A program made the translations under genes and the position numbers. A stretch of DNA of 64,000 bases, from NCBI RefSeq assembly GCF_051105105.1, contig NZ_CP185339.1. One strand, written 5' to 3'. Each line of letters opens with the position of its first letter. The first letter of the stretch is position 1. The notes under the pieces were generated by a model. That model saw only the letters and a list, made by a program, of their open reading frames with translations. It did not search any database and was not told the origin of the DNA. The stretch comes from Nannocystis pusilla (lineage in GTDB: Bacteria > Myxococcota_A > Polyangia > Nannocystales > Nannocystaceae). This document shows positions 14,667 to 58,904 of the stretch, in pieces.

Positions 14667-14777
14667 CGCCGACGATCATGCATCACCCTCGGGCCTCCGC
14701 CCACGACGAACTCTTCCGTCTTCGCCGTGACCCGTGCGATTCGGGCCTGGGGCCGCTGCATCGCGTAAGGTGAGCCC

Positions 14778-15782
<1,005 letters not shown>

Positions 15783-30017: not shown

Positions 30018-30074
30018 AGCGGCGAGGTCCTCGCCGCTCGCAGCGGAGCGCTCGAGGGGCCTCGAGCGCTCCGC
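30018..30074. terminator. two adjacent GC-rich palindromes downstream of the 30137..31430 gene
   Basis: AGCGGCGAGGTCCTCGCCGCT sits at about 30018-30038 and GCGGAGCGCTCGAGGGGCCTCGAGCGCTCCGC at about 30043-30074. There is no U-tract, so terminator function is speculative. Confidence 0.25.
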
Positions 30075-30136
30075 TTCAGGCGGGGCCGGCGTGCGCGATC
30101 GTCAGGCGATCATCCTGCCGGTCCGCCGTGGTCGGC

Positions 30137-31430
<1,294 letters not shown>

Positions 31431-32029
31431 GGGAGGGTTTCCTTTCTCTGTCTCGAAAGCAGCCGGCGGGTCAATCCCGCCTGAGCTCTTCCGGACGAAC
31501 TATTGGTTGGTAGTCCCGGGTAGGCAAAGCTAAGGTGTGGTGAAGCGCAAAGGAGGACGGCGCCCCATTCTGCGACACCCCCCTCTACGAGGCCCTACAG
31601 CCGCGAATTTCAGGGAATTGCCGGGGTCCCGCGAGCCCGGCGGGGCGCGCGGAGAACCGCTCGAACAGGCGTTATTTCCGGTCGCTGCGGCCGCCTCGCC
31701 CACTGCTATCAATGTCGTCCGCCTGCCGCGGCCGTCCGCCGCGCCGGAGTCGTCCGCGCCTGCGCGATATCGAATGCCATCAGGCGATCGATGGGCGCGA
31801 AAATGACAGTACATCACCGCCGCGATCCATCTGACAGCGCACCGAACATTTCCGCGACCGGGCGGCGGTATGGCCAATGGCTCACCGAAACGTCGCAGCG
31901 GCCCGCCCGCGCGAACCACCGCGCGCCGCCCGTTTCCGCCGCGCGCCTGGGCGGCGCGCCTAAAGCGTCCGCTCGTCGTCCGCTCTCCGCCGGCCCGTGC
32001 GACCGCCCGGACACGTCAGGTCGGCGGCC

Positions 32030-41091: not shown

Positions 41092-43195
41092 ATGCCGACC
41101 TCGCACCGCGTCTGTCTCCTCCTCCTCGCCGCTGCTGCCTGCGACGCTCCGCCGTCGAAGGACGCGCCGAAGGTCGCCACGATCCAGGCCAAGCGCGCCC
41201 TACCGGCGGACAAGGCCGACGCCGCGCCCGCCGACGACAAGGCGCGCGACGGCAAGTCCGACGCCCCGCCCGTCATCGTCGCGGGCCCGCCTGCGTCGGA
41301 CGACATCGTCAACATGCCTGACAGCTTGACCGCGGAGAACATCCCGCCGATCCCGCGGGCCATCGCCGACGGCGTCGGCACCTACTCCGAGGCGCGCTCG
41401 GCCGCCGCGCTCGAGTGGCACCCCAAGGATCACTCGCTGCTGATCCGCACCCGCTTCGCCGAAGCGCCCCAGATCCACGAGGTCAAGATGGCGGGCGGCG
41501 ATCGCCGCCAGCTCACCTTCTTCAACGACAGCGTCGGCGGGGCCATCTATCCGCCGGTCGGCGACGGCAGCTTCTTCGTGTTGTCGAAGGACATCGGCGG
41601 CAACGAGTTCGCGCAGAACTGGCGCTTCGATCGCGCCGACGGCAAGCTCACCCTCCTCACCGACGGCGCCTCGAAGAACAGCCTCGGCCCGTGGACCCGC
41701 GGCGGCGAGAAGTTCGCCTACACCTCGACCCGGCGCAACAAGAAGGACACCGACTTCTACGTCGTCGACCCGCGCGACCCGACCACCGACAAGCTGGTCG
41801 CCGAGGTCGAGGGCGGCGGCTGGTCGCCCGCGGACTTCTCCGCCGACGGCAACCAGATCCTCGCGGAGGAGTACGTCTCGGTCAACGAGAGCTACCTGTG
41901 GCTGTTCGACCTGGCCACCGGCCAGCGCACCAAGCTGACCGAAAAGACCGGCGACGTGCCGGTCGTCTGGTCGGGCGCCAGCTTCACCGCCGACGGCAAG
42001 GGCGTCATCACCACCACCGACGGCAAGGGCGAGTTCCGCGAGCTCGTCACCCTCGACCTCGCCACCAAGCAGACCAGCCCGCTCGGCCCGCCGGTGCAGT
42101 GGGACGTCGAGAGCTTCGCCATCAGCCACGACCGCAAGAAGCTGGCCTCGATCGTCAACGAGGCCGGCGTCGATCGCCTGCGGCTGCACGACCTGCCGAG
42201 CGGGCGCGAGCGGCCGATCAAGACCCGCCTGCCGGCCGGCACCATCGGCGGCCTCAACTTCCACCCCGACGGCAAGCTGCTGGCCTTCAGCCTGTCGTCG
42301 GCGCGCTCGCCCGCCGACACCTACGTGCTCGAACGTCCAGAGCGGCGTCATCGAGCGCTGGACCGAGAGCGAGGTCGGCACCCTCAACCCCGGCACCTTC
42401 AGCGAGCCCGAGCTGGTGAAGTGGAAGAGCTTCGACGACCGCGAGATCTCCGGCTTCTACTACAAGCCCCCGGCGCGGTTCGCCGGCAAGCGCCCGGTCG
42501 TCGTCATCGTCCACGGCGGGCCCGAGGGCCAGTCGCAGCCCGGCTTCATCGCCCGCAACAACTACTACCTCGACGAGCTCGGCGTCGCCCTGCTCTACCC
42601 CAACGTGCGCGGCTCGACCGGCTACGGCAAGACCTTCGTGAGGCTCGACAACGGCGCCAAGCGCGAGGACTCGGTCAAGGACCTCGGGGCCGCGCTCGAC
42701 TGGATCGCCAGCCAGCCCGATCTCGACGCCGATCGCATCATGATCATGGGCGGCTCGTACGGCGGCTACATGACCCTGGCCGCCTCGGTCCACTTCGCCG
42801 ACCGGATCCGCTGCGCCGTCGACATCGTCGGCATCAGCAACTTCGTCACCTTCCTCGAGAACACCGAGGCTTACCGCCGCGACCTCCGCCGCGTCGAGTA
42901 CGGCGACGAGCGCGACCCGGAGATGCGCAAGAAGCTGCTCGAGATCTCGCCCCTCACCCGCGCCGCCGAGATCAAGAAGCCGCTGTTCGTCATCCAAGGC
43001 AAGAACGACCCGCGCGTGCCGGCCAGCGAGGCGCACCAGATCGTCGCCACCCTCAAGCAGGGCGGCACGCCGGTGTGGTACCTCGAGGGCAAGGACGAGG
43101 GCCACGGCTTCCAGAAGAAGCGCAATCAGGACTACCAGATGTACGCCACGATCCTGTTCATGAAGAAGTTCCTGCTCGACGGGATGGGCGAATGA
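41092..43195 (+). CDS. S9 family prolyl oligopeptidase-type serine peptidase lipoprotein (1-nt frameshift near 42332)
   Basis: MPTSHRVCLLLLAAAAC lipobox and an N-terminal beta-propeller (TolB/PD40-like). The catalytic domain with GGSYGG nucleophile elbow is in ORF 42416..43195. They join at TYVLD/VQSGVIERW after removing one base in ctcgaacgtc. Confidence 0.75.
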
Positions 43196-44092: not shown

Positions 44093-44674
44093 TCACACGC
44101 ACTGGTTGTTCTCGCAGCTCATCAGGTCCATGCAGTCCTTGGCGAACTCGCACGGGTCGAACTCGTTGCCGTCGTAGCACTTGCCGTACACGCAGTGCTT
44201 CGAGCCCTCGGCGCAGTCGGTGTCGGTCTTGCAGGGGTCGCCCTCGCTGCCGTCGTAGCAGGCGGCCATGATGCAGCGCGGCGCGGCGGCGCTGCACTCC
44301 TCGTGGAACTCGCACGGGTCGCCCTCGCTGCCGTCGTGGCACTCGCCGAACACGCAGAACGGCGCGGAGTCCGGGCAGTCGGCGATGAACTGGCACGCCT
44401 GCCCCTCGGTCTCCGCGGGCGGGGCGCCGGTGGTCATCTCGCCGGTGGTCGTCGCCGGCCCGGTCGTGCCCTCGCCGGTCGTCGACGTCGTCGGCACCGC
44501 GCTGGTCCCCGTGGTCGTGGTCGTGCTCGTGCCGGTGGTCGTGCCGGTCTCCATGATCGGCACCATCGGCCCCGGCTCGGTGTCGCCGTCGGTGACGGCC
44601 ACTCCTTGCTTCTCCTTCTCACCGCAGGACGCCGTGAGCGCCACGGCGAGGTACAGGACGACGTTGGCACGCAT
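44093..44674 (-). CDS. Cys-rich secreted lipoprotein with three CxDxxPFCVFGECHDGSEGDPCEF-type repeats
   Basis: Start at 44674 (MRANVVLYLAVALTASC lipobox). A Thr/Gly linker precedes three tandem about 38-aa Cys-rich repeats. Confidence 0.6.
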   Translation of the reverse strand: MRANVVLYLAVALTASCGEKEKQGVAVTDGDTEPGPMVPIMETGTTTGTSTTTTTGTSAVPTTSTTGEGTTGPATTTGEMTTGAPPAETEGQACQFIADCPDSAPFCVFGECHDGSEGDPCEFHEECSAAAPRCIMAACYDGSEGDPCKTDTDCAEGSKHCVYGKCYDGNEFDPCEFAKDCMDLMSCENNQCV

Positions 44675-44936
44675 GATCGATCGGAAAGATGGCGACGGTC
44701 GGCCGGGCGGCACCTCAATTTCCATTGATGTGACACGAACGACGTTCGTCGAGCGGAGCCCGCCAAACGGTCATCGGCGCGTCATTTCGGGAAAATTCGG
44801 CCGCGCCCGCGAGCGGCGGCGCGCCGTGATCGCGGCCACGGCCCCTGCCCACATTCGCGGTCAATGCATGCACTCGCCGCCCCCGCCCGCGGAGACTGCT
44901 CATGGGCGCGCCGCCCGAAGGGCGACCTGGCCTGGC

Positions 44937-46769
44937 TCAGCGCAGGCGGTGCTCGAGCCGCTGCGCGGTGTCCTCGAGGACGGCGCGGTGCTCGGCCGGG
45001 ACGAACTCGATCTGGCGGCGCAGGTACGGCAGGAGCTCCGAGTTGGGCAGCTCGCTGATGGCGGTGCTGGCGACCTTGACGAACGGCTGCTCGCCCTCGC
45101 GGAGGCGGTCGCACAGGAAGTCGAGCGCCTCGACGCTGCCGATCTTGCCGATCGCGGTCAGGGCGGCCTTGCGGGCCGCCTCCGGGTCGGGCAGGTCGCG
45201 GGCCTCGAAGATCCGGCGCAGCGGCTCGAACGCGTGGGGGAACACCAGCCGCTCGACCGAGGCCGCCGCGGCCTTGCGGACCGGCGCGCTCGGGTCGCGC
45301 AGCGCCTGCGACACCAGGCCGAAGCTGCGCTTGAAGCGGAGCGCCCCCATCGCCGCCGCCACCGACTCGCGCAGCGACGCGTCGCCGTGGCGGTACATCG
45401 CCTCGAGGCCGGCGATGACCGGGTAGGCGCGGACCACCGCCAGGCTCTTGACGATCTCGAGCGGCGGCACCGCCTGCCCGCGGCGCTCGAGCTCGAGCAC
45501 CAGCAACAGCGCGTGGCGGCGCACGTAGTCGGGGAAGCGGCGGTCGGCCATCACGCCGGCGGCCACCAGGGCCGGGTCGCCGCCGAGCTCCCACTCGGCC
45601 AGGTCGACGTACCAGACCTCTTCGTAGTCGGGCAGCTGGCGCAGGAACTCGGGCACCGGCATCGGCCGCGGCGCGTCCTGGGGCCCGTCGCCGAGGCGAC
45701 GGATCAGCCGCAGCGCGCGCTCGCGGTTCTTCGCCGGCAGGTCGAGCGTGGTGATCTTGCGGTACGACTCGGCGACCTGGCGGAACGCCCGCACCGACGC
45801 GAACGCCTCGGCCGCGGCCAGGCACGCGTTCTCGATGATCTGCGGCGGGTGGCCGGCCGCCAGCGCCTCGGTCGCCGCCTTGATCCACGCCTCCGCGCTG
45901 CGCCAGCGCAGGTCGTCGGCGTACGGCAGCCCCGAGCGGGTGCAGTAGTCGGCGGCCTCGCGCAGGATCGACGCCACCGCGTGGAACTCGCCGGCCTCGC
46001 GGGCCATGGCGATGAACGTCTCGTACAGGCGCAGCGCGTCGAGCTTGAGCCCGTCGTCGCGGAGGATCCGGACGCTGTTGAGGTAGCCCTCGGCCACGTT
46101 CTCGAACGCCCGCGTCTCCGAGCCGAGGCGGGCGATCAGCTGGTAGCAGTCGAACGCGCGCTCGCGCAGGCCCTCGCTCTCGAACGCGTCGGCGACCTCC
46201 TCGACGCTGGTGGTCGCGTCGGCGATGGCCTGGCGGGCGCGCTCGTGGCCGAGGCGGCGCAGGCACAGCGCGTAGTTGATCTTCATCAGCGCGCGCTCGT
46301 AGTCGCGGTCGACCAGCGCGTCGCCGGCGAGCATGCGGGCCCACAGCTGCGAGGCGGCCGCGTCGTCGCCGGCGCGCTCGAGCGCGATCGCCCGGTGCAC
46401 CGGCATCCCGCCGAGCTCGAACCACGAGGCCGCCGGGCGGTGCTGGCCGGCGCGCGACAGATAGATCGCGTACAGGCGCACCGTGCGGATCGCGTCGGCG
46501 TCGCCGGCCTGGGCCCGCTGCGCGTACAGCCGCATGATGTCGGGCCCCGGCATCTCGCGCGCGCCGAGGTACGACAGGCAGGCCATGCCCTCGCCCCAGT
46601 TGCCGGTCGCGCGCAGCGAGTCGACGTAGGCGCGCAGCCACTCCTCGTACTCGAAGTCGATGCGGTCGACCACCTGGACCAGCTGGCGCAGGTAGATCTG
46701 GGCGTCGGCGTGGCGGCCGGCCCGCAGCGCCCCCTCGGCGCGGATCCACAGCACGTTGGTGTCGATCAC
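44937..46769 (-). CDS. HEAT/PBS-lyase-type repeat protein, last gene of MoxR-vWA operon
   Basis: GTG start at 46769 with GGAGG 7 nt upstream (MIDTNVLWIRAEG). C-terminal HEAT-like repeats include DPSAPVRKAAAASV and DPEAARKAALTAIGKIG. The start overlaps the vWA gene stop. Confidence 0.6.
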   Translation of the reverse strand: MIDTNVLWIRAEGALRAGRHADAQIYLRQLVQVVDRIDFEYEEWLRAYVDSLRATGNWGEGMACLSYLGAREMPGPDIMRLYAQRAQAGDADAIRTVRLYAIYLSRAGQHRPAASWFELGGMPVHRAIALERAGDDAAASQLWARMLAGDALVDRDYERALMKINYALCLRRLGHERARQAIADATTSVEEVADAFESEGLRERAFDCYQLIARLGSETRAFENVAEGYLNSVRILRDDGLKLDALRLYETFIAMAREAGEFHAVASILREAADYCTRSGLPYADDLRWRSAEAWIKAATEALAAGHPPQIIENACLAAAEAFASVRAFRQVAESYRKITTLDLPAKNRERALRLIRRLGDGPQDAPRPMPVPEFLRQLPDYEEVWYVDLAEWELGGDPALVAAGVMADRRFPDYVRRHALLLVLELERRGQAVPPLEIVKSLAVVRAYPVIAGLEAMYRHGDASLRESVAAAMGALRFKRSFGLVSQALRDPSAPVRKAAAASVERLVFPHAFEPLRRIFEARDLPDPEAARKAALTAIGKIGSVEALDFLCDRLREGEQPFVKVASTAISELPNSELLPYLRRQIEFVPAEHRAVLEDTAQRLEHRLR

Positions 46770-48367
46770 CGCCGCCTCCGCCCCTGTCCCTTCAACCCTG
46801 TCCCGACGGACATGGTCTTCGGGGCACCAGTCTTGCGCCGGGTCGTCTGGGCCTGGCGATGGCCGGCCTCGACGTCGCTGATGATCTGGCGGGCGCGCTG
46901 GGCCCTTCGGCCGTGGCTTATCGCCTGGTCGTCGATCACGTGCACGCGGTAGAACAGGTCGAGGTAGCCGAGGTCGAGCACGCCCGAGCTCGGCAGGATG
47001 AACACCCCGTAGATCGGCGCGCGCGCGGCCAGGGCGGCGACGTCGTCGGGCGGCAGCTGGCACTCGCCGTGCGTCAGCAGGTAGACCAGCACCTTGCCGC
47101 CGCCGCCCCCGCCCGAGCGGCGCGGGGCCGACAGCTCGGCGTTGATCTGGCGGATCACGCGGGCGTAGTTGCGGCCGTGCTCGGCGCGGAACTGCAGCAC
47201 ATAGGGCACCTCGGCGTGGCCCTGGGCGCCGACCTTGACGCCCTCGTACAGGCGGCTGTCGAAGAAGCGCAGGATCACGTGCTCGCCGAGCAGCGCCAGC
47301 CGCTTACACAGCGCCAGCGCCAGGCCGCGGGCGAACACCTCCCGCACCCCGCGCATCGACGCCGAGCCGTCGACCAGCACGTAGTGGGTGCGGTGCTCGT
47401 TCTCGACCTGCTTCTCGTGGGTGAAGTAGAACAGCTCGTCGTCGATGAACTTCTGTTCGAAGATGTCTTCGTCGTAGGCGAGCTGCGACAGCTCGAGGTC
47501 GTCGACCCCGCCGAAGCGCTCGATGGACGCGTAGCCGTCGATCGAGAACACCTGCTGGCCGGCCTCGCGCTTGACCTCGAGGATCGACGGCAGGAGCTCC
47601 ATCGAGAAGTCGATCACGTCGGCCAGCGCCGGGCTGACCATCACGTTGTAGAGGTCGGCCAGGTCGACGCCCGCGGCCGCCTCGCCGGGCCCGCCGCGGA
47701 ACAGGCCGAACAGGCGCAGCGCGTCGACGTCGATCTGCTCGACCGCCAGCAGCGGCAGCAGCCGGTGGGTCGTCAGCGTCTGCAGCCACGCGATCGTCTG
47801 CCGCTGGTCGTAGCGGGTGTACGCCGAGCTCGGCTCGACCTTCGCGTAGTGGACCGCGTCGACCGGCAGCTCGATCGGCCGCAGCACCCGCACGTCGTCG
47901 GGCAGCTGCGGGACCACCGGCGCGAACACCCGCGCCAGGACCACGCCGATCATCTGGTCGCGGTGCTTCCAGCCGGCCTGCGCGCGCACCAGGTCGCTCT
48001 CGCCGAGCTCGACGAGCAGCCCGCGCCAGGCCTCGCACAGCTCCGACTCGGCGATGCCCTTGACCACCGGGCCAGGGCCGCCCAGGCCCGTGATGAGACA
48101 GCCGAGGTCGTGCAGGATCACCAGCGGCACGGCCACGCCGAGGCGCGCCAGGATCCCCTGCCACACCAGCGCGCGCATCATCGCCAGCGCGCCGGCGCCG
48201 TCGATCTGCGACAGCGCCAGGCTGCCGACCTGGCGCTCGAGCTCGGCCACGTTGGGCGTCACCCGCGGCGCCTGGGCCTGGCCGCCCGCGGCGGGCCGCG
48301 ACGTCCGCGGCGCCGGGGCCTGAGGCGGGGCCGCGCGCGGCGGCGGGGGCTTGCGGACGTCGGCCAT
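46766..48367 (-). CDS. von Willebrand factor A (vWA) domain protein, MoxR partner
   Basis: C-terminal vWA with MIDAS motif (HYVLVDGSASMRG). The start lies 16 nt after the MoxR stop with a GAGGTG SD. Confidence 0.7.
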   Translation of the reverse strand: MADVRKPPPPRAAPPQAPAPRTSRPAAGGQAQAPRVTPNVAELERQVGSLALSQIDGAGALAMMRALVWQGILARLGVAVPLVILHDLGCLITGLGGPGPVVKGIAESELCEAWRGLLVELGESDLVRAQAGWKHRDQMIGVVLARVFAPVVPQLPDDVRVLRPIELPVDAVHYAKVEPSSAYTRYDQRQTIAWLQTLTTHRLLPLLAVEQIDVDALRLFGLFRGGPGEAAAGVDLADLYNVMVSPALADVIDFSMELLPSILEVKREAGQQVFSIDGYASIERFGGVDDLELSQLAYDEDIFEQKFIDDELFYFTHEKQVENEHRTHYVLVDGSASMRGVREVFARGLALALCKRLALLGEHVILRFFDSRLYEGVKVGAQGHAEVPYVLQFRAEHGRNYARVIRQINAELSAPRRSGGGGGGKVLVYLLTHGECQLPPDDVAALAARAPIYGVFILPSSGVLDLGYLDLFYRVHVIDDQAISHGRRAQRARQIISDVEAGHRQAQTTRRKTGAPKTMSVGTGLKGQGRRRR

Positions 48368-48383
48368 AAAAGGCGGGCACCTC

Positions 48384-49572
48384 TTACGCGAAGCGGCTCG
48401 ACGCGAACATCGTCTCGAGCAGCTTGTCGACCTCGCCGACCATGCGCTGGGCCGTCGGGCTGTCCTGCATGCGCAGCAGCGCCGCCTTGATGTCGCCGAG
48501 GTTGCGCAGCTGGCTGAACAGCTGCATGTCCGACAGCACCTGGCTGCCGGTGAGCGTCTCGCGGATGACCCGCAGCTCCTCGAGCAGGTCCTGCAGGCTC
48601 GTCGGCGTCGCGCCGATCCGGCCGTGGTCGGGGTGCGACTCGTACCAGCGGTCGAGCACCGGGCCGACGATCTCCTGGAGAATCTCCTCCTGCTCCGGCG
48701 TGTTCCACACGTGGCGGAGGATGAACAGGTCGGCGTCGGTCACGTGGTCGCGGCCGTCGAACAGCGCCGAGCTGGCGAACACCTTGAGCAGCTTGACCAC
48801 GCGGCGGTCGGACAGGCCGATGCCCTCCGAGCGGATCTGGAACACCATGCCCTTGAAGGTGGTGAGGAACTCCTCGCTCATCTTCACGTGCGAGCCGAAG
48901 TCGCGCTGGATCGTCAGCAGCTCGGCCGCGGTCGCCACCTTGCGCCCGACCTGCTGGTCGGCCATCTGCTGCACCTCGAGCTGGATGCCCTTCTGCAGCA
49001 GGCCGCGGAAGTGATAGCTGTCGAGGTAGTCGCAGCGCACGCGCAGCAGGAAGCGGTCGAAGATCGCCGACAGCGCCTCGTCGGTCGGCACCTCGTTGCT
49101 GGCCGCGAAGAGGCTGATGAGCGGCACCCGCACCGTGCTGGTGCCGTGGGTGAAGCGGCGCGCGTTGACCAGCGTGAGCAGGCTGTTCAAGATGGCGCTG
49201 TTGGCCTTGAAGATCTCGTCGAGGAACACGACCTCGGCCTCGGGCAGCATCTTCTCGATGCGCCGGCGGTACGTGCCCTGGCGGAACGCCTGGATGTCGA
49301 CCGGGCCGAAGATCTCGTTGGGCTCGGTGAAGCGGGTCAGCAGGTAGTCGAAGAAGCGGGCGTCGATCACCTGCGCGAACGCGCGGACGATCGCGCTCTT
49401 GGCGGTGCCGGGCGGCCCGACCATCACCATGTGTTCGCCGGCCAGGGCCGAGATGAAGAGGAGGCGGATGATCTCCTCCTTGCCGAGGAACTGCTGCTCG
49501 AGCTGGCGCGCCCCGTCCTGCAGGCGGCGGGCGAGGTCGCTGATCGAGAAGGTGGCCGGGGTGGTGCTCATG
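48384..49572 (-). CDS. MoxR-family AAA+ ATPase
   Basis: Start MSTTPATFSISDLARRL at 49572. Walker A is GPPGTAKS and Walker B is VVFLDEIFKANSAILNSLL. The length (396 aa) is typical of MoxR. Confidence 0.85.
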
Positions 49573-49573
49573 G

Positions 49574-52410
49574 CTATTTTTCGGCTTTTACGACGCGCGG
49601 GACGAGCGTCGCCAGGAGATTTTCGACGACCGAGCGCGGGATGAGCTCGCCGAGATGATCGATATACTCGATCCAGCGCCGCTCCACTTGCGCGTCGAAG
49701 CCGAGGCTGGCGGCCCCGCCGAGCGGCGAGCCCAGCACGTCCCCCAGCGCGGGCAGCAGGAGCGGCAGCGCCAGGAACATCTGCACCGGCCGGTCGCGGC
49801 TGGTGGGCGCGACGCCGAGCCGGGCGCCGAGGTCGAGCACGCGGAGGAAATGGACGTGGATGAGGGCCGCGACCAGGGCCGCGACGTCTTCGGGCCCGGC
49901 GCTGTCGGCGGGGGCCGGCAGGGCGAGCATCGGCCGGGCGCCGGCGGTCTGCGCGCCCGTCGCTCCCGCCGACGGCGTCGGCCCCGACAGCGGGCGGCCC
50001 GTCAGCGAGAACAGGAGCGAGCCGAGGACGGTGCCGCCGATCTCGATCCAGTGCCGCGACGACGCCCACGCGTGGCAGACCGCGCGGGCGAACGCGCGGT
50101 GCCGCAGGAAGCTCGCCCCCTCGAGCGGGCTGTAGCCCGGCGGGGCCAGCAACGGGCGCAGGAGGCAGGTCACCGGGCTGGCCCAAAGGACATCTTGCAG
50201 CAGCGCCGAGACCTCGGCCGCGTGCGCGGTCGACCACCAGTTGACCGTCTCCTCGCGCACCGACAGCGCCCCCGGCACCGTCCAGCGCAGGCGCCTGCGC
50301 GGGATCTCCTGGCCGACGAAGCGCAGCTCGCCCTCGGCGCCGCTTAGGATCTGGTCGCGGCGGAGCAGCTCCAAGAACGCCCCCACCGCCGCGTGGTCGG
50401 CCAGCGCCGCCGAGAAGCCCTCGGGCCGGCTGAACAGCAGCCAGTAGCGGGCGGCCGACTCGACCCGCCGCCACGTCGCCTGGCGGGCCCACACGCGGCT
50501 GCGGTCGGGGTGGTCGAGCACGAGCAGGTTGTAGAGCGCCACCCACAGCGCCAGCTCCTCGGCCCCCGGCTCGTGCAGGTCGGGCTCGGCCACCAGCTGC
50601 TGCGCGCGCTGCAGGCGGAGCGCCGCGACCTCGCTGGTGCGCAGCGTCGCCAGCTCGCCGGACATCGCCCGGAAGTCCGCCGGCCGCACCGGCGCGGCCA
50701 CGTGGACCGTCCCGCCCCCGAGCAGGGGCGCCACGAAGCGCGCGCAGAACTCGCCGAGGTTCCGGGTCACGACTCTCGTCCCGGCGGCAGCTCCGGCGTC
50801 CCGCTGGTCTCCTCGACCGCGGGCCGGCCCCCGCGCCCCGCCTCGCCGAAGCCCCACAGCGCGAACCGGCCGAGCCGCTCGTTGAGCAGCGTCGCCGGCC
50901 CCGACGTCGGCGAGTCCGACGGGCTCGCCTCGATCACCGCCAGCTCGAGCCGGCTCATCATCGCCGCGTCGAGCGGCGCCAGGTGGTCGGGCCGCAGGCG
51001 CAGCGGGCTCTGATCTGTCCCGAGGAACAGGGCGTGATCGGCCGCCTCGAGCCCCAGCAGCTCGCGCACCAGCTGCGGGCGCACGTGCGGCCACAGCTCG
51101 AACCCGTCGGGCACCAGCACCCCGGGCGCGACCTCGACGATGCGCATCCCCAGCGGGATGATCGCCGCCGCGCCGACCCCCGCCGCCAGCCCGGCCGTGC
51201 CGCCGAGCGACGACCCGGTCAGCACCAGCATCCCTTGCGGCAGCACCGCCAGCCGCGCCGCCGCCAGCGCCATCGGCGGGATCAGATAAATCAAGCGCCG
51301 CAAAAGGCCCGCCTGCTCCCAGCGGATCAGCGCCCCGCGCGGCTCGCGGATCGACGCCGTCGGCCGCAGCCGCAGCTCGACCTTGAGCGCCTGCACCGCG
51401 GTGCCGCGGGCGTCGCCCGGCTCGTGTGCGCGCGCGGCCACGTCGCTGCGCACGAGGTGGGCCCCGTCGATGAACTGCGGCGCCCCGTCGAGCCGCTCGA
51501 CCCGGCCGACGCGGCCGCGGAACAGATACATCTCGTCGCCCGGCAGGCACGACGACGCCGACGCCAGGTGGATCGGGTGGCGGTACCCGATCTCGACCGC
51601 CGCCCGCTGCGACACCGGGGCCAGCAGCTCGACGCCCGGGATCCCGTGCAGCACGTCGAGCACCTGCCCGCTCGGCTGGCGCAGCCGCAGCAGCAGGCTG
51701 GCCCGCCGCTCGCCGGCCAGCGCCACGCGGACCCCCGCGAGCGGCACCTGGTTGCCCCACAGGTAGCTCAGGATCCTGTCCGAAAGGCCAGGTGCCACCA
51801 GCACCAGGGCGATCTCGTGCAGCCCGCACAGCTGCGGATCGGAGACGATGCCCGCGATCGGCAGCGGGATCTGGCGCAGCGACAGCCGCTGGATCAGCTC
51901 GACGGGGTCGAGCCGGTCGAGCGCGCGGTAGCGCGCCGTGACGTCGTGGTCGACCACCACGACCTCCTCGGGGCTGGCGGCGGTCGTCGTCCCGCCGGCG
52001 AGGTCGTAGCCGAACGGGGCCATGCGGTCGCGGTAGCGGACGAACACGGTGCCGCTGCCGGTGAACAGCTGCCCGTGGACCGCCAGCGACAGCCGGGCCA
52101 GGCGGTCGAGCACGTAGCTGTCGGCCCCGGCGCAGCGCATCAGCAGCGCATGACCGCCGCCGTCGCGGCGGGCCCGCTCGATCGTCATCGTCGGGATCAG
52201 CTCGTCGAGGCTGCACTCCTCGCTGTACGCGCCGAGGAACGCCACCAGGCGGTCGAGCGACGGGAACGTCACCAGCGTCTCGCGCCCGCACGCCACCCCG
52301 CGAGCGTCCGGCGCCAGACCCTGGAGATGAAAGCGCGTCTGTCCGGCGGCGATCGGCTCGAGCAGGGCGGGCATCGGGACCGGGAGTGTAGCCGCTCCCC
52401 TCGGGACCAT
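49574..52410 (-). CDS. large (about 945 aa) conserved hypothetical protein, first gene of MoxR-vWA operon (1-nt frameshift near 50780); candidate effector/VMAP-like component
   Basis: The N-terminal 540 aa are in ORF 50767..52410 and contain a GxSxG-like GSSLGG element. The C-terminal about 400 aa are in the 49574..52507 frame. The stop is 1 nt from the MoxR start. No recognised domain. Confidence 0.5.
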
Positions 52411-52931
52411 CTACGGCGTCGTTTCGGCCGCCAGCCCGCGCGTGCAGCGGGATCGCGCTCGCCGCCGTGACGCCGACGACAGCCCGGACCGCGACCGCCT
52501 TCCTCAACGCGGGCCCACGACCACGAGCGAGCGCCTGCAGTCCCCGACATCGGCGTCGCCCGACGCATCCGCCTCACGAGCCTCGTCGAGACCGCGAGCC
52601 CGCATCGATCTTCGCGGGCCCGAGATTCCCCGCCTCGTCCTCGGACATGGGCGCCCACCCGACGGAGGCGCCGACGAGCCGCGCCTGATCGGACCGACGC
52701 GCCATCGAGGCCCTGCGCGGCTCGCGACGGCTCGCGGCCGATCGCCCGCGCACCCGACCCCTCGGCCCACTCGATCCGAAAAGCCGTGCGCGGCTCGCCC
52801 CGACGCCTCGGCCGCCCCGCCTGCCGGGCGCTCGCGGCCCTCCGCCCGCGCCCCGAAAACCTCGCCGTCGTCGCCCCTGAGGCCCGCAGGAGCCCGCGCG
52901 CGGCCTCCGGGCGTGTTAGCATGGCGGTTGC

Positions 52932-54279
52932 TTGTCCCGCCCGAGCAAGCCGCGTCCGCCGCCGCCGCCTCCGCCTGCCTTGCGTCCGCCTGCAGCCGCG
53001 CTCGACACGCCGGCGCGCCCTGGCCCTGGCGACGGCCTCGCCCGCGCGCGGGCCCTCGAGCACACCGGCGACCACGCCCGCGCCGCCGCCCTGCGCCTCG
53101 AGTACGCCCACACCTTGTGCGGCACGGCCCAGCGGATCGCCCTCCTGCGCGAGGGCGCAGCGCGGCACTCCGGCGCCACCGAGGAGGGCCGCAGCCTCCA
53201 CCAGGCGCTCGCCGAGACCCTCCTGCGCCACGCCGAATTCATGGAAGACGGCGCCCCGCGGCGCGCGATCCTCATGGAAGCCGCGCGTGCGCTCGAGGAG
53301 GCCGACCAGGGCGCCATCGCCGGCGAGATCTACGAGCGCCTGCACATGCTGCGGCGCGCCGCCGTCGCCTACGAGCAGGCCGGCGCCGTCACCCAGCTCG
53401 AGTACGTGCTCGGCCTCATCGACCGCATCGAGCACGCCGAGGCCGTCCTCCAGCGCGCCAGCGACGAGATCGACGCCGCCCTGCGCGAGGGTCGGCGGTT
53501 CTTCGCCCATGGCCTGCTGCAGGAGCACCTGCAGGACGCGCGGACCACCCGCGGCCCGCTCGCCCACAGCGGCGCTCCGCTGCTGCGCGCCGCCCTCGCC
53601 CGCGTCCAGGCCGACCTCGGCGTCGCCCTCCCGCGCGGCCAGCGGGTCGACCTGCGCTGGGGGACAGGTCAGGTCACGCGCGTCGTCTTGCGGGCCGATC
53701 TGCGGCTCGGGCGCTCGCCCGACGTTCGAGCTCAGCCTCGGCGGCGCCAGCCTCTCGCGCGAGCACGCCGCCTTGCGGCTCGAGGCCATCGCCGCCGCCG
53801 CGGGCAGCAGCGCCCACGGCCTCGACGAGGTCGAGCTGGCCGTCGCCCTCGTCGACCTCGGCTCGCGCGCCGGCACCTTCTGGCGCGGCGAGACCCTCGC
53901 CCCCGGCGAGCCCGTCGCCCTCGAGGGCCCCGGCGAGCTCACCCTCGGCCTGTCCGCCGCTCGCATCGAGGTCCACCCGCTCCCGCGCGAGCGCGGCGAG
54001 CTCGGCGCCCTCCTGCGCCCGCAGGGCCAGGGCGCCGCTTCCCCGTGGACCCTCTACCTCCCCGGCGGCGGCCCCCTGTGGCTCGCCCCCGATCGCCCGA
54101 TCCCCGCCGTCCTCGAGCTACGCCCGCCCTTCATCGCCGTGCGGATCGCCGCCGGCGTGCGCGCCCAGCTCGGCCAGGAGCCGCTCGGCCCCGGCGCCAG
54201 CATCGAGCTCCTCCACGGCGACCGCCTCCACCTCGACCTGCCCGACGGCCGCCTGACGCTCGAGATCTCGATGACCTGA
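52932..54279 (+). CDS. FHA-domain protein with N-terminal helical domain (1-nt frameshift near 53700)
   Basis: TTG start. The N-terminal about 250 aa are helical in frame 0. The C-terminal FHA-like core (DLRLGRSP...FELSLGGASLSREHAALRLE...GSRAGTFWRGETL) continues in the 52786..54279 frame. Confidence 0.6.
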
Positions 54280-54282
54280 CCT

Positions 54283-54395
54283 TTCGGACCTGCCCCTCGG
54301 GACCTGCCCCTCCAGACCTGCCCCTCGGGACCTGCCCCTCGGGACCTGCCCCTCGGGACCTGCCCCTCCGGACCTGCCCTCTCGACCACTCCGCC
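54283..54395. repeat. 14-bp tandem repeat CTCGGGACCTGCCC x7 between FHA gene and Ser/Thr kinase gene
   Basis: Seven near-identical units with core GGACCTGCCC, related to the GGACATGTCC REP core. Confidence 0.8.
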
Positions 54396-54505
54396 CCGCC
54401 CGCTCGCGCCTGCGCTCTCGGTCCGCTCCCGCGCCGAAGCCTCCCTCGCTCCGCCGCCACGGTCCTCTCCGTCCCCACCTGTCTCTTCGACCATCTCTCG
54501 CTCCC

Positions 54506-55852
54506 ATGCCGATCGAGCCCCTCCGCGGCGACATCCGCGCCGATCCAGCCCTCGACCACCAGCTGCGGGCCGTCCTCTCGCGCCTCTCGGAGGGCGCCGA
54601 GCTGCCGCGCGAGCTGCCGGGCATCGCCGCGCTCGCGCGCCGGCTCGTCGAGGGCGCCCCGGCGCCGGAGATCGATCGCCAGATCCGCGACCTCAGCCAC
54701 GCCGGCTACGTCCGCGGCGCGCTCGTCAGCCTCGCCGCCCACCTGCGTCTGCGGCCGCGGCCCGACCTCGTCCTCGTCCTCGCGCGCGAGCTGTGCGACG
54801 CCCTCGCGCCCGACCTCGGCGTCGAGCTCGCGCGCGCCGCCCTCGCCTTGCCCGAGGTCGAGGATAGCCGCTGGCAGCCGACCGGCGCCTACGCGGCCGC
54901 CAACCTCCTCCTCGGCGACACCCTCCTCGATCGCGGCGACCCGCTCGGCGCCCTGCGTCACTTCGAGGCCCTGCTAGCGATCGACATCGACCACGCCCGC
55001 GCCCTGCGCGGCTGGAGCACCGCCCAGCGCCGCCTCGGTCGCGGGGGCGCCCACGCCAGCCGCGGCCTCGCCCTGCTCGAGGGCCTCGACGCCACCGAGC
55101 TCGTCGCCGGCCTCGGCGTCGACCGCTACGAGCTCGGCCGCCCGCTCGGCCGCGGCCGCCACGCCGTCGTCTATCAGGCCTTCGACCGCCGCGTCGGCCG
55201 CGACGTCGCCATCAAGCGCCTGGTCGCCGAGGGCAGCGACGGCCGGCTCGTCAGCGCCCGCTTCTTCGCCGAGGCCCGCACCCTCGCCCGCGTACGCAGC
55301 CCGCACGTCATCGCCCTCCTCGACGTCCAGCCCGCGCACCGCTTCGTCGCGCTCGGCCTGTGCCGCGGCGGCAACCTGCGCGTCGCCGTGCGCAAGCGCC
55401 TGCTCGGCCCCGCCGACCTGCCGCGGGTCGGCGCCCAGATCGTCAGCGCCCTGCGGGCCGTGCACGCCGCCGGCGCCGTCCACCGCGACATCAAGCCGGC
55501 CAACATCCTCGTCCGCGAGGCCCGCGAGGGCTCGCCCGTGGCCCTCGCCGACTTCGGCCTCGCCCTCGCCGACCCGCGCTCCGGCAGCGGCCACGCCGGC
55601 ACCCTGCGCTACCTCGCCCCCGAGCTGCGCAGCCCCGGCCCGGCCGCCCGCGCCACCCCGGCCTCCGACCTCTTCAGCGCCGGCGTCGTCCTGCTCGAGC
55701 TCGCCCTCCACCCGCAGCCCCTCCCCGCCGTGTTCGACCAGATCGGCGCCGCCGCCTTCGACCCCGAAGAACATGTCCCGAAGGACCTGCCCGGCGGCTG
55801 GACCGATCGCCTCGTCCGCATGCTCGGCCCCGACCCCGCCGCCCGCGGCTGA
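54506..55852 (+). CDS. eukaryotic-type Ser/Thr protein kinase with N-terminal TPR-like region
   Basis: The kinase catalytic loop HRDIKPANIL, DFG and APE (LAPELRSPG) motifs lie in the C-terminal half. The N-terminal 200 aa are helical repeats. Confidence 0.8.
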   Translation: MPIEPLRGDIRADPALDHQLRAVLSRLSEGAELPRELPGIAALARRLVEGAPAPEIDRQIRDLSHAGYVRGALVSLAAHLRLRPRPDLVLVLARELCDALAPDLGVELARAALALPEVEDSRWQPTGAYAAANLLLGDTLLDRGDPLGALRHFEALLAIDIDHARALRGWSTAQRRLGRGGAHASRGLALLEGLDATELVAGLGVDRYELGRPLGRGRHAVVYQAFDRRVGRDVAIKRLVAEGSDGRLVSARFFAEARTLARVRSPHVIALLDVQPAHRFVALGLCRGGNLRVAVRKRLLGPADLPRVGAQIVSALRAVHAAGAVHRDIKPANILVREAREGSPVALADFGLALADPRSGSGHAGTLRYLAPELRSPGPAARATPASDLFSAGVVLLELALHPQPLPAVFDQIGAAAFDPEEHVPKDLPGGWTDRLVRMLGPDPAARG

Positions 55853-55909
55853 CATGGCCCTTCGCACATGTCCTCTCCGACCTTCCCCTTCGGACCTGTC
55901 CCTCGCACC

Positions 55910-56539
55910 ATGCCTCGCCTCGCCTCGCTCGCCCTGCTCCTCCTCGCCTGCGAGGAGCTGCCGCGCACCTACAGCAGCGCCGGCCCGGCCCAGCTGCTGT
56001 TCGCCGACCGCTTCGACGGCCCCGAGCTCGGCCCCTCGTGGAAGTCGACCGGCCCCGGCGCGCGCCTGGAGGGCGGCGAGCTCGTGACCGAGGGCCTGCG
56101 CAACCACCCGCTGTGGCTGACCCTGCCGCTGCCCGACAACGTGCGCGTCGAGTTCGACGCCCGCGCCGCCACCGACGAGGGTGACATCAAGGTCGAGCTC
56201 GCGGGCGACGGCAAGAGCTTCGCGCGCAGCGCCAGCTACACCGCCACCGGCTACGTCATCATCTTCGGCGGCTGGAACAACACCACCAGCGCGATCGTCC
56301 GCCGCGACGAGCACGGCGGCGATCGCAAGACCACCCAGTCGCTCAAGGTCGAGGCCGGCAAGCGCTACCACTTCGCCATCACCCGCCGCGACGGCGCGAT
56401 CCGCTGGGAGCTCGACGGTCAGGAGGTCCTCGCCTACGACGACCCCGAGCCGCTGACCGGCCCCGCCCAGCGCCACTTCGCCTTCGGCGGCTGGGAGGCC
56501 CGCGTCGCCTTCGACAACCTCGAGGTGTTCGCGCTGTGA
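55910..56539 (+). CDS. secreted lipoprotein, hypothetical (possible concanavalin/LamG-like fold)
   Basis: Internal ATG gives MPRLASLALLLLAC. The mature domain of about 190 aa is beta-rich. It is preceded by REP-like elements (ACATGTCCTCTCCG...TCGGACCTGTCCC). Confidence 0.55.
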   Translation: MPRLASLALLLLACEELPRTYSSAGPAQLLFADRFDGPELGPSWKSTGPGARLEGGELVTEGLRNHPLWLTLPLPDNVRVEFDARAATDEGDIKVELAGDGKSFARSASYTATGYVIIFGGWNNTTSAIVRRDEHGGDRKTTQSLKVEAGKRYHFAITRRDGAIRWELDGQEVLAYDDPEPLTGPAQRHFAFGGWEARVAFDNLEVFAL

Positions 56540-57107: not shown

Positions 57108-58613
57108 TCAAGGCGCCACTTGGGTGCAGTTGAACGTGCGCTCGTGAACGACCGTCCTGCCGATCGCGTCGGTGAAGGTCCCGCGCACGCGGGCCGACGC
57201 GTTGACCTTGCAGCTGCCGGTGAGCAGCGACGGATCCATGGAGTTCGGCGAGATCGTGACATTCTGAACGCCCGTCCACGCGGCCGTGAAAGGCCCCACA
57301 CCGCCCGTGATCACGGGTGAGCAGAAGAAGCTACCGCCGCCCGTGGACTCGCAGTGGACGGTCATGCCGAAGGTCGCCCCGCTCGCCGCCTTGTACGCGT
57401 CCAGCATGCCCGCGCCGCAGGCGGCGCCGCACGGGATGGACTTCTTCGCCGTCTTCTCGAGGATCGACTTGATCTGCGCGACCGAGAGCGCGGGGTTGCG
57501 CGAGCGCATCAGCGCCACCACGCCGCTGACGTGCGGGGCGGCCATCGAGGTGCCGGCCCAGTGGCGATGGCAGGCGCTCGTGTTCTGTCCGAACGGGAGC
57601 CAGGTCGACACCACCCCGCTGGTACCGGTGGTGCCCGTGTCGGTCATCTGCTGACAGCCGATGACAGCGCCGTGACCGGCCAGGCCGTTCACCGCGGAAC
57701 CGCCCGGCGCCGCGATCGTGACGCCGCTGCCCGTGAGCGAGTACGGTTCGGCCTTCCCTGCGGCGTCGACTGCCGCGACGACGATCAGGTTGGACGAGTT
57801 ACAGGTCGTCCACAAATAATGGGCGGGGTTGAAGTCCGGGACCGGCCCGTATTCATAGCCGGAATCGCCGTTGCCAGCCGCTGCGACCACCACGGTACCC
57901 GCGGCCGCCGCGGCGTCGATCGCGGACTTCAGCGCGGCCGGGCACGGCCCCGCGACGTTGCCGACGCTGATGTTGACGACGTTGGCCCGCTTGCTGGACT
58001 GGACCGTCTGCCCGCGACCGTTCGGGGTCGGAAGCCCCGCCGCGTAGCGAATGGCCCGGGCCGCGATCGTCGGGAAGCTCTCCACCATCCCCGGATCGCT
58101 GACATTGGCGCTGCCATAGGCCTGCGCCACCCGGAGCGGCATCAGCGGGCAATGCCAGCAGATGCCCGCGCCGCCGGAACCATTGTTGCTGGCGGCGCCG
58201 AGCGTGCCGGCGACGTGGATCCCGTGGTGATAATCCCCCTGATCGAACGGGTCGACGTTGCCGCCGAAGAAGTCGTAGCCAGTCGTCCACTTACCGTTCA
58301 GCTCCGGGTGGCTCAGCCTCCCGCTGTCGGCCACCGCGATGAGGACGCCCGTCGAGCCCTTGCTCAGAGTCCACGCCTCGGGCACCCGCGCTGCCTCGTA
58401 GTGCCACTTTTGCAGGGAGAACAACGGGTCGGACGGCGTCACGCCGAGCGCCCGCTCCTCCACCTCGGCGTCGACGAAATCATCAGTGTCCCCGAACTCG
58501 TCCGGCTCCGCCTCGCAACCCGCGAGGGTCAACCCCAGGACGCACAGCGCCCGCTGCAGCCGGCGTGATTGAGACAGAGGAGCGTGAATCGACGATGTGT
58601 GCGGATTGTTCAT
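57108..58613 (-). CDS. S8 family (subtilisin-like) serine peptidase lipoprotein
   Basis: Start MNNPHTSSIHAPLSQSRRLQRALCVLGLTLAGC at 58613. The catalytic motifs are VAVADSG (Asp), HGIHVAG (His) and GTSMAAPHVSG (Ser). Confidence 0.85.
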   Translation of the reverse strand: MNNPHTSSIHAPLSQSRRLQRALCVLGLTLAGCEAEPDEFGDTDDFVDAEVEERALGVTPSDPLFSLQKWHYEAARVPEAWTLSKGSTGVLIAVADSGRLSHPELNGKWTTGYDFFGGNVDPFDQGDYHHGIHVAGTLGAASNNGSGGAGICWHCPLMPLRVAQAYGSANVSDPGMVESFPTIAARAIRYAAGLPTPNGRGQTVQSSKRANVVNISVGNVAGPCPAALKSAIDAAAAAGTVVVAAAGNGDSGYEYGPVPDFNPAHYLWTTCNSSNLIVVAAVDAAGKAEPYSLTGSGVTIAAPGGSAVNGLAGHGAVIGCQQMTDTGTTGTSGVVSTWLPFGQNTSACHRHWAGTSMAAPHVSGVVALMRSRNPALSVAQIKSILEKTAKKSIPCGAACGAGMLDAYKAASGATFGMTVHCESTGGGSFFCSPVITGGVGPFTAAWTGVQNVTISPNSMDPSLLTGSCKVNASARVRGTFTDAIGRTVVHERTFNCTQVAP

Positions 58614-58904
58614 GGCCCTGGCCTCCGATCGAGCCGAAGCTCTTCGACTCTTGGTAACCGCGGGGCTCGGCGGGATCCTGGACGACAGCGCACCGCCATT
58701 CGCTCGACAGCGCGGTCGCAAGATCCGGATGCACCCAAAGTCGCGAATTCGGAATCATCATTCGACAGGTCGCGCTCGCCGCCGAGCTCGTCGGGCGGCA
58801 ACGCACCTTCGGGCCGTTTCACGCCTGTTACGCCACGAACCTCGCCGGGGGCGGCCTGATACCTTGGAAAATGCCGCGCGGCGCCCCGCTGGCGGCGGAG
58901 GATC

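Follow-up and report, generated by a model that had tools for sequence, protein, structure and literature searches.

The 64,000-nucleotide stretch of the Nannocystis pusilla chromosome considered here (hereafter the window; NCBI RefSeq assembly GCF_051105105.1, contig NZ_CP185339.1, GC content ~72%) carries a cluster of eight genes, in which a five-gene operon on the minus strand lies divergently to a unit encoding an FHA-domain protein, a Ser/Thr protein kinase and a probable lipoprotein. The operon encodes two proteins that are called A and B in what follows, a MoxR-class AAA+ ATPase, an adaptor with a von Willebrand factor A (vWA) domain and a HEAT-repeat protein, and the products of the cluster are identical to NCBI entries XWX07398 to XWX07405. 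From profile comparisons, the cluster is best filed as an undescribed variant of the predicted family of MoxR-vWA ternary systems, and one whose components include a HEAT scaffold and a helical protein not known before. Judged from the orthologues recovered, the cluster is inherited vertically in the Nannocystaceae, and the core of five genes is met again in lineages across the class Polyangia. The reading that we prefer, to which we give roughly even confidence, is that this MoxR-vWA variant, having neither a beta-propeller nor an FtsH protein, is an ATP-driven signalling or assembly switch wired to Ser/Thr phospho-signalling and not a carrier of toxic effectors. The features of the locus are the following:

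50767..52410, minus strand: gene A, first gene of the operon, an open reading frame (ORF) of 547 aa (NCBI start at Met13 = 52374, giving 535 aa)
49574..50770, minus strand: gene B, 398 aa, with a GTG start within a GTGA overlap with the stop of A
48384..49571, minus strand: MoxR-class AAA+ ATPase, 395 aa, matching Pfam bpMoxR, AAA_5 and AAA_lid_8
46766..48367, minus strand: vWA adaptor protein, putative, 533 aa, with an invariant DxSxS motif and an hhalign probability of 91% to the canonical bp-type vWA component
44937..46769, minus strand: HEAT scaffold protein, 610 aa, its GTG start overlapping the vWA stop as GTGA, matching Pfam HEAT_2
52411..52931, no strand: divergent intergenic region from A to the FHA gene, ~520 nt, ~78% GC, non-coding by its flat codon-position GC profile
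52932..54279, plus strand: FHA-domain protein, 448 aa once repaired, with the Pfam FHA match on the downstream frame
~54273..54384, no strand: 14-bp tandem repeat, GACCTGCCCCTCGG, 7.6 copies (Tandem Repeats Finder, TRF)
54506..55852, plus strand: Hanks-type Ser/Thr protein kinase, 448 aa (Pkinase, E=1e-33)
55910..56539, plus strand: probable exported lipoprotein, 209 aa from Met15 (NCBI start), with the signal MPRLASLALLLLAC and a match to Pfam DUF6250

At such a GC content long ORFs open by chance and, for this reason, the true reading frames were picked by codon-position GC (GC3) profiles. The ORF 49574..52507, of 977 codons, shows a coding-type GC3 only up to ~50770, and further on the coding frame is that of ORF 50767..52410. 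Since the coding frame changes at this point, the single 945-aa protein of the preliminary description of the locus resolves into the two genes A (547 aa) and B (398 aa), which are also annotated separately by NCBI and whose homologues are always two distinct proteins, of 490-580 aa for A and 380-460 aa for B. A fusion of A and B, either as one 945-aa protein or through a programmed frameshift, was considered and rejected on account of the different frames, of the homologues that are always separate and of the gaps of 20-270 nt that part the two genes in many genera. The case calls for some caution, as at 72% GC an open frame of 977 codons can turn out to be artefactual and to cover two real genes. 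The tight coupling of the minus-strand genes reported previously is borne out by direct reading of the junctions, the number of genes being five (44937..52410) and not four: A ends in ...GAG TCG TGA and the GTG start of B overlaps its stop as GTGA, B and MoxR are 2 nt apart, MoxR and vWA are separated by 16 nt with GAGG directly after the MoxR stop, and vWA and HEAT overlap again as GTGA. The intergenic region 52411..52931 presumably holds the promoters of both transcription units; an Rfam scan of the window, this region included, gave no family match.

The MoxR ATPase, already recognised as such, matches the Pfam family bpMoxR with E=2e-77 (259 bits, cut-off 27) as well as AAA_5 and AAA_lid_8. 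Its P-loop, GPPGTAKS, corresponds to the GxxxTAKS variant described for the MoxR proteins of two classes of ternary systems, the beta-propeller and the FtsH class (Kaur, Burroughs, Iyer and Aravind, 2020; eLife 9:e52696) and is invariant in 53/53 sequences, together with the Walker A, Walker B and sensor-1 motifs and the Arg-containing motifs DRFLLR and LSDRR. The closest solved relative by sequence is RavA (E=4e-48, residues 13-305); against the NCBIfam RavA model the protein scores 200 bits, with a cut-off of 681, and only residues 11-302 are aligned.

The partner of the ATPase, previously proposed to be a vWA protein, has no match in Pfam, NCBIfam or PDB sequence-profile searches, and its assignment comes from other lines of evidence. 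Besides a variable tail, the protein comprises ~270 conserved residues in its N-terminal part and, on the C-terminal side, a divergent vWA domain, in which the motif D333-x-S335-x-S337 (DxSxS) is invariant in the family alignment, and its orthologues carry the UniRef name "VWFA domain-containing protein". In hhalign comparisons, the family aligned with the bpX0-vWA-bpX1-L12 protein of Chondrinema litorale with a probability of 91.4% (E=8.9e-7), the aligned part comprising the linker that precedes the vWA domain together with the first strand and helix of this domain, and it came into register with Escherichia coli ViaA on the metal ion-dependent adhesion site (MIDAS) motif, although weakly (E=8e-4, probability 25%). 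The rest of the domain is unusual, with "GRNY" in place of the usual "GGT(N/D)" and "LTHGE" in place of the usual "lTDGe"; as we read the alignment, the first MIDAS motif would be kept and the canonical Thr and Asp positions would be occupied by the invariant R399 and H433. No beta-propeller follows the vWA domain in the window or in 12/12 relatives, the conserved region ending at about residue 500/533 and being followed by a short variable tail; distant relatives within that comparison are 418-509 aa long.

The junction between the MoxR and vWA genes is a hotspot of lineage-specific insertions. Two metagenome-assembled genomes (MAGs) have here, at 13933-15555 in both L038 and L061, a gene for a 540-aa P-loop NTPase (GFRGVGKS) together with ~4 kb of other genes; elsewhere the junction hosts a Ser/Thr kinase gene on the opposite strand (L062, 5151-6536), a receiver-domain gene (L072, 13083-13493) or two small ORFs (L075, 12582-13458).

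The last protein of the operon had been correctly described as a HEAT-repeat protein: it matches Pfam HEAT_2 (E=3e-13), with PBS-lyase-type HEAT repeats at residues 440-600, and this segment aligns with alphaRep/PBS-HEAT chains of the PDB with E=6e-41. The N-terminal ~440 aa are helical, show a weak SNAP/TPR-like signal (SNAP, E=0.01) and are as conserved as the remainder. The protein has no transmembrane segment, the maximum Kyte-Doolittle value over 19 residues (KD19) being 1.4, and an hhalign comparison with the canonical bpX3-TPR protein was negative, although with a single-sequence template this was a weak test.

Protein A is predicted, from structure modelling, to be a chain of ferredoxin-like alpha/beta domains. 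An exhaustive profile search with A returned 407 representative clusters, mostly full-length and of ~500 aa. Among 49 remote full-length relatives, 17 match Pfam fvmX7 (PF20005; best E=1.9e-15, 56 bits vs cut-off 24) and 16 match bpX2 at E<=1e-3, a few of the latter exceeding the cut-off; moreover, precomputed annotations (JGI) name some relatives fvmX7, "FtsH ternary system domain X7". Because the remote relatives match both families, A can be placed in the fvmX7/bpX2 superfamily of accessory domains, which is common to the FtsH and beta-propeller classes. The A protein of the window itself is too divergent for a direct fvmX7 match and reaches 14.2 bits against bpX2 (cut-off 23.6); an hhalign comparison of A with canonical bpX2 was also negative, a weak test in view of its single-sequence template. 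Protein B is mostly alpha-helical with one small beta-sheet in a confident predicted structure, whose fold finds no match in the PDB, and it belongs to no recognisable family. The name "DUF547", given by UniRef to some B orthologues, was not reproduced in Pfam scans of 25 family members, and the comparison of B with canonical bpX4, again a weak test against one sequence, was negative.

A large variable third partner, as foreseen in the preliminary description, is thus replaced by two conserved genes. Pfam, NCBIfam and PADLOC searches and the predicted folds gave no peptidase, caspase/CHAT, patatin or VMAP-type domain in A or B, nor any enzymatic fold, nuclease, TIR, pore or other effector fold. 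The GxSxG-like element that had drawn attention in the large ORF is GSSLG at residues 399-403 of A. Its serine, S401, is present in 32/60 sequences and the site does not lie in a hydrolase fold, so that A was discarded as a candidate serine hydrolase or patatin. In a marine Myxococcales MAG (L069, 10001-12725) the A-B pair stands by itself, with no MoxR, vWA or HEAT gene within 9 kb, which suggests that A and B may form a unit able to work without the ATPase in cis.

The distribution of the cluster was examined by a scan with one genome per species and the A alignment as query, counts being limited to loci with room on the contig. It gave 64 loci, all from Nannocystaceae/Nannocystales (Nannocystis, Enhygromyxa, Plesiocystis, Paraliomyxa and MAGs). 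In the Nannocystaceae, A is followed by B, MoxR, vWA and HEAT at 44/45 loci, so that the gene order, whose loss would have spoken against a functional unit, is in fact kept; FHA and kinase genes lie upstream of A at 37/41 loci and the lipoprotein gene is present at 36/41. Mean pairwise identity within each family is 0.81 for MoxR, 0.73 for vWA, 0.69 for HEAT, 0.64 for A, 0.61 for the kinase, 0.52 for B and 0.48 for the FHA protein. Conservation is even from end to end and no hypervariable block was found in any of the proteins. Furthermore, the pairwise-distance vectors of the seven core genes correlate with r = 0.84-0.97, which argues that these genes have a single common history, without any sign that components were swapped; together with the even conservation, the correlation fits one co-evolving machine. 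The flanking genes are kept only within the genus Nannocystis, and it is the block that persists.

Outside this family, the A-B-bpMoxR-vWA-HEAT core was found in one Kofleriaceae MAG, in one Sandaracinaceae MAG and in further contigs, and other relatives of A come from MAGs labelled Polyangia, Myxococcales or Myxococcota. These distant orthologues are 49-61% identical to the proteins of the window for MoxR, 35-42% for vWA, 34-39% for HEAT, 23-35% for A and 26-31% for B. Four of the distant contexts also have FHA and kinase genes, two of the four with a lectin-like gene in addition (49% identity for the lectin-like lipoprotein), and in the 3/3 contexts with DNA to compare the N-terminal regions of both FHA protein and kinase match those of the window. 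One distant locus has genes for a PP2C phosphatase and a kinase in place of FHA and kinase, and its operon is interrupted by a receiver-domain gene. The tie to FHA/kinase signalling advanced in the preliminary description is therefore upheld, and seen to be old, from orthologues in the Nannocystaceae and in several deep lineages of Polyangia. Homologues of A or vWA were found neither on plasmids nor on phages; plasmid relatives of MoxR are at most 41% identical and are members of other systems. In PADLOC-DB v2 there was no match for A, B, MoxR, vWA, the FHA protein or the lipoprotein, the matches being generic ones to the kinase domain and two weak ones of the HEAT protein, to a HEAT-ARM repeat model and to PDC-S39 (E=0.0057).

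The partner proteins of the divergent unit, an FHA protein and a Ser/Thr kinase with a TPR-like N-terminus according to the preliminary description, were confirmed as such. The FHA protein has an N-terminal helical domain, the FHA domain (Pfam, E=2e-6) and a C-terminal beta-rich part, and the phosphothreonine-binding R, S and H residues are invariant in 42/42 orthologues. In the window, its gene is frameshifted inside the FHA domain by an extra T at 53725/6 ("GACGTTCGAG" vs "GACGTCGAG" in relatives), the reading switching from "LRLGRSPDV" to "ELSLGGASLSREHAALRLE". This 1-nt insertion is not present in four related Nannocystis genomes (L001, L004, L005 and L006). Other N. pusilla assemblies of the same cluster have defects of their own, with indels in the FHA and HEAT genes of L001 and truncated calls for B and the kinase in a 12.69-Mb assembly (P0181, P0531, P0571). 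Because related assemblies carry other single-base indels in the same genes, a sequencing error is as likely an explanation of the frameshift as a real pseudogene.

The kinase, with the catalytic motifs K237, HRD, DFG and APE kept in 38-41/41 sequences per position, is predicted to be catalytically active and cytoplasmic; its N-terminal helical region of ~200 aa gives a weak TPR_2/TPR-like signal. Transmembrane segments were detected neither in the operon proteins nor in the FHA protein and the kinase. The lipoprotein has a ConA-like lectin/glucanase-type domain, matching DUF6250 with 28.8 bits (cut-off 26.9) and, below threshold, 3keto-disac_hyd and Laminin_G_3.

The 14-bp tandem repeat, first reported with seven copies and now measured at 7.6 (TRF, 54273..54379), occupies most of the spacer that runs from the stop of the FHA gene to the start of the kinase gene. 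It is specific to the genus Nannocystis and variable in copy number, the indels between species falling inside it, and in other lineages the FHA and kinase genes abut with no repeat spacer; it is not part of the conserved system. The spacer is less structured as RNA than shuffled controls (z=+1.5). Degenerate tandem copies with 14-bp spacing occur at 2008-2035, 21709-21736 and 55858-55903, the last one just past the kinase stop, and the opposite strand of the unit presents GGGG runs every 14 nt. The unit may be a dispersed mini-repeat specific to the genus.

Starting from the gene structure, the family assignments, the synteny, the conserved catalytic motifs and the lack of recognisable effector domains, we infer that the products of the locus form a complex, and also what its client, its direction of signalling and its trigger might be. 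The model is provided by the established MoxR-vWA pairs, namely RavA-ViaA, CbbQ-CbbO, NorQ-NorD and midasin (summarised in Kaur et al., 2020; eLife 9:e52696). By analogy with these pairs, the vWA protein would dock on the MoxR hexamer, holding a partner peptide at its MIDAS-derived site, and ATP hydrolysis would remodel or release the partner so held. The role of partner probably falls to A, B and HEAT, encoded in the same operon, in which case a soluble cytoplasmic complex would be switched between assembled states. The coupling to phospho-signalling could take place in two ways: the kinase might mark a component and the FHA protein read the resulting phosphothreonine or, alternatively, remodelling might gate the kinase and the FHA protein be the output, as proposed for the epibiont sensing and response (Esr) pathway discussed below.

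Several points weigh against such a switch. The class made up of the beta-propeller and FtsH systems, the system of the window included, is known from prediction alone, and Kaur et al. assign the whole class to biological conflict (Kaur et al., 2020). A or B may, on the sequence data, still have a cryptic effector role. Given that the vWA site is without the canonical Thr and Asp of MIDAS, the classical metal-mediated capture of peptides may not apply. No homotypic adaptor domain was found to be shared by the kinase N-terminus, the FHA N- and C-termini, the HEAT and vWA N-termini, A, B and the MoxR C-terminus (probabilities <=1.1%). The FHA/kinase pair is missing from the neighbourhood at 4/41 Nannocystaceae loci and at several distant loci, so that the phospho-link is not obligatory in cis, and the marine MAG mentioned above carries A-B with no MoxR nearby. 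Finally, Polyangia genomes are rich in kinases, which raises the chance of finding a kinase beside any operon; a chance adjacency is argued against by the N-terminal regions, which are orthologous in distant lineages.

An unlikely explanation, though one to be taken seriously, is that the locus is a true conflict system of the immune or abortive-infection type, in which the MoxR-vWA pair would set the threshold at which A, B or HEAT is released on infection as an effector of an unconventional type, the kinase and FHA protein acting as sensor or regulator. It has in its favour the homology to bpMoxR, to fvmX7/bpX2 and to the bp-type vWA component, and the hosts are social, predatory myxobacteria; the class has been reported as enriched in multicellular bacteria and without conventional effectors (Kaur et al., 2020). 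The analogous Esr pathway is defensive, and the subclade-specific insertions between MoxR and vWA (P-loop NTPase, kinase, receiver-domain gene) hint at modular accretion. This positive support is limited to homology and host lifestyle, whereas the distribution and the proteins themselves point elsewhere: A and B have no effector fold and no component has a hypervariable segment, there is a single copy per locus with co-inherited genes (r = 0.84-0.97), and the system is present in all recovered Nannocystaceae loci, unlike sporadic defence genes. Furthermore, PADLOC has no matching model for A, B, MoxR or vWA, the searches of plasmids and phages recovered neither A nor vWA homologues, and the flanking genes are ordinary, those of one distant locus being housekeeping genes. 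For these reasons the idea of effector deployment, as put forward in the preliminary description, did not gain from the analysis, and nothing in the data speaks for an arms race; membership of the MoxR-vWA ternary systems, proposed in the same place, is supported by bpMoxR, the GPPGTAKS P-loop, the vWA homology and the relatives of A matching fvmX7 and bpX2.

It is doubtful that the operon serves the maturation or assembly of a client whose gene lies elsewhere, as a dedicated chaperone comparable to RavA-ViaA, CbbQ-CbbO and NorQ-NorD, with A, B and HEAT as assembly factors and the kinase and FHA protein merely co-regulated. Known maturation pairs adjoin the genes of their client enzymes, whereas here the only conserved neighbours are non-enzymatic proteins and the FHA protein, kinase and lipoprotein. 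A lineage-wide vertical conservation would fit a housekeeping role, and both the RavA-like AAA+ module and the architecture of an N-terminal domain followed by a C-terminal vWA domain are as in known maturation pairs (Kaur et al., 2020). However, the ATPase stays far below the NCBIfam RavA cut-off (200 vs 681), and orthologous FHA/kinase or PP2C/kinase genes across deep lineages are hard to explain by co-regulation alone.

More speculative, and in our opinion improbable in its full form, is a phosphorylation-gated version of the AAA+ remodelling switch. According to this proposal, the locus would encode a signal-transduction device of a kind not yet recognised in bacteria and present across the Polyangia. 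R399 and H433 of the vWA protein would read a phosphothreonine written by the kinase instead of a metal-bound acidic residue, and the complex of A, B and HEAT would have its state reset or passed on by MoxR with the use of ATP; the fold of B would be a new one, and the whole would be a conserved regulator of myxobacterial cell behaviour and not an immune system. Lastly, the notion that unrelated genes are simply packed together in a gene-dense, high-GC and kinase-rich genome, to which the indel artefacts or mutations of the window (the FHA frameshift) and the 945-aa ORF, a high-GC artefact, might lend some colour, is effectively refuted by the synteny data, with the five-gene order kept at 44/45 loci and in lineages with proteins only 25-60% identical, stop/start overlaps in close and distant relatives, and correlated distances.

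Other features of the window and of the related loci were recorded along the way. Directly downstream of the HEAT gene (44093-44725, minus strand) is the gene of a 210-aa Cys-rich, Thr/Gly-rich protein with a hydrophobic, signal-like N-terminal segment, which is built of three 81-bp repeats (TRF, 44143-44397) and is kept only within Nannocystis; in the distant relative L076, two Cys-rich Stig1-domain genes lie in the FHA-kinase unit. Just past the lipoprotein gene, a subtilase (Peptidase_S8) is encoded at 57108-58721 on the minus strand, a position at which it is not found in other Nannocystis loci, and in a distant contig (L073, 5520-7892) a different S8 peptidase gene is directly divergent from gene A, possibly by coincidence. 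Two stretches of clearly lower GC (0.63-0.67 vs 0.72) were observed at 30000-32400 and 40000-42000, the former with long tandem arrays at 30329-31024 (units of 12, 24 and 153 bp) and 32102-32399 (71 bp x 4.3); another array is found at 2041-2313 (82 bp x 3.3). The minus-strand gene 28285-29592 encodes a TGase_elicitor ("transglutaminase elicitor") domain (E=6e-91), from a family better known from oomycetes; it is unusual but has no connection with the operon.

MoxR-vWA ternary systems are a large family known from prediction, and their beta-propeller/FtsH branch is the least understood of all since it has no recognisable effector. The locus described here offers a simpler version of this branch, with no propeller, FtsH or membrane part and with a persistent tie to a predicted-active kinase and an FHA reader, and it moves the likely role of the branch from effector deployment towards the ATP-dependent control of signalling or assembly. 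Moreover, genetic and biochemical work can draw on its eight defined genes, and it provides an independent parallel to the recently described actinobacterial Esr pathway.

Compared with RavA-ViaA, the system shares the AAA+ module (E=4e-48) and a partner made of an N-terminal domain and a C-terminal vWA domain, putatively with DxSxS in register. In contrast, the MoxR protein of the window, of 395 aa vs 498, is without the LARA/C-terminal domain and below the NCBIfam RavA cut-off, no decarboxylase or respiratory complex is linked to the locus, and there are three extra dedicated partners.

A closer parallel in gene content can be drawn with the Esr pathway of Schaalia and Actinomycetes, a cluster of MoxR, vWA, kinase, phosphatase and FHA genes (Wang et al., bioRxiv 10.64898/2026.09.08.750141), which is the only experimentally studied MoxR-vWA cluster tied to FHA threonine phosphorylation. 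Deletions of the sensor genes and a phosphosite mutant have shown that threat signalling passes through threonine phosphorylation of the FHA protein, and in the model of the authors a surface sensor acts through MoxR, vWA, kinase and phosphatase onto the FHA protein; Esr is effectively confined to Actinomycetes and often linked to Esx secretion (Wang et al., bioRxiv 10.64898/2026.09.08.750141). In both systems MoxR and vWA form a conserved core encoded together with a Ser/Thr kinase and an FHA protein, and PP2C occurs in one relative of the window system. However, Esr has the secreted beta-propeller/Ig-repeat sensor EsrA and the transglutaminase EsrD, neither of which belongs to the conserved block of the window, where the cytoplasmic A, B and HEAT proteins are found instead. 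Likened by gene content, the system would be an analogue of Esr and not a member of it.

The nearest kin are found among the classes named by Kaur et al., in which the beta-propeller ternary systems are "subsystem 4" and the FtsH ternary systems "subsystem 3" (Kaur et al., 2020; eLife 9:e52696). The MoxR types of the two classes are sisters, and their vWA domains are often without the conserved aspartates; in the beta-propeller class, the propeller after the vWA domain is called "strict", and a third component with variable N-terminus, transmembrane segment and propeller is also defining (Kaur et al., 2020). Kinases and FHA domains appear in that work only as effector domains fused to the vWA of a different class, the kinases being mostly inactive, and not as conserved separate partners (Kaur et al., 2020). 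In one supplementary file of the same paper, Nannocystis, Plesiocystis, Enhygromyxa, Haliangium, Sandaracinus, Sorangium and HEAT were not found. As a canonical example of the beta-propeller class, the plasmid locus of Chondrinema litorale (L071) is organised as bpX4 - bpMoxR - bpX2 - [bpX0..vWA..bpX1-L12] - [bpX3+TPR/SNAP]. The window system resembles it in having bpMoxR with GxxxTAKS, a putatively homologous vWA protein with a degenerate MIDAS, a bpX2-related accessory protein and no conventional effector, and the last component is weakly SNAP/TPR-like in both (E=7e-4 in the canonical locus, E=0.01 for the HEAT protein). It differs in that the vWA protein is without a propeller, and the last component is made of HEAT repeats, with no propeller, transmembrane segment, bpX3 or variable N-terminus. 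Furthermore, A is twice as long as bpX2 and better matched by fvmX7, B is without a counterpart, the gene order is unlike, an FHA/kinase/lipoprotein unit stands alongside, and the system is restricted to Polyangia and vertically inherited.

Myxobacteria were formerly placed in the deltaproteobacteria. From the latter, FtsH systems have been reported (Kaur et al., 2020), which the window system resembles in the fvmX7 matches among the relatives of A, in its divergent vWA protein with a large N-terminal region and in its system-specific helical proteins. An FtsH-type double AAA+ protein was found neither in the operon, nor in the window neighbours scanned with Pfam, nor, for about ten related contigs, in flanks of 9-10 kb; ubiquitin-like (Ubl) conjugation genes, caspases and NEFF1 are likewise missing from the operon and from the same flanks. 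Simple FtsH-type systems have a radical SAM enzyme listed among their partners on the effector side (Kaur et al., 2020). In the window, two genes at 32976-39150, divergent or overlapping, encode large radical SAM proteins, one of 893 aa and one of 705 aa; with a gene for a TPR protein in the same stretch they lie 6-12 kb from the operon, the radical SAM genes themselves at 7.5-12 kb. On the other hand, the HEAT scaffold and the FHA and kinase partners fall outside the definition of the FtsH class. Because both defining features of the propeller class are lacking, and with them the FtsH protein, the most fitting place for the locus is within the FtsH/beta-propeller branch, as a reduced variant not described before.

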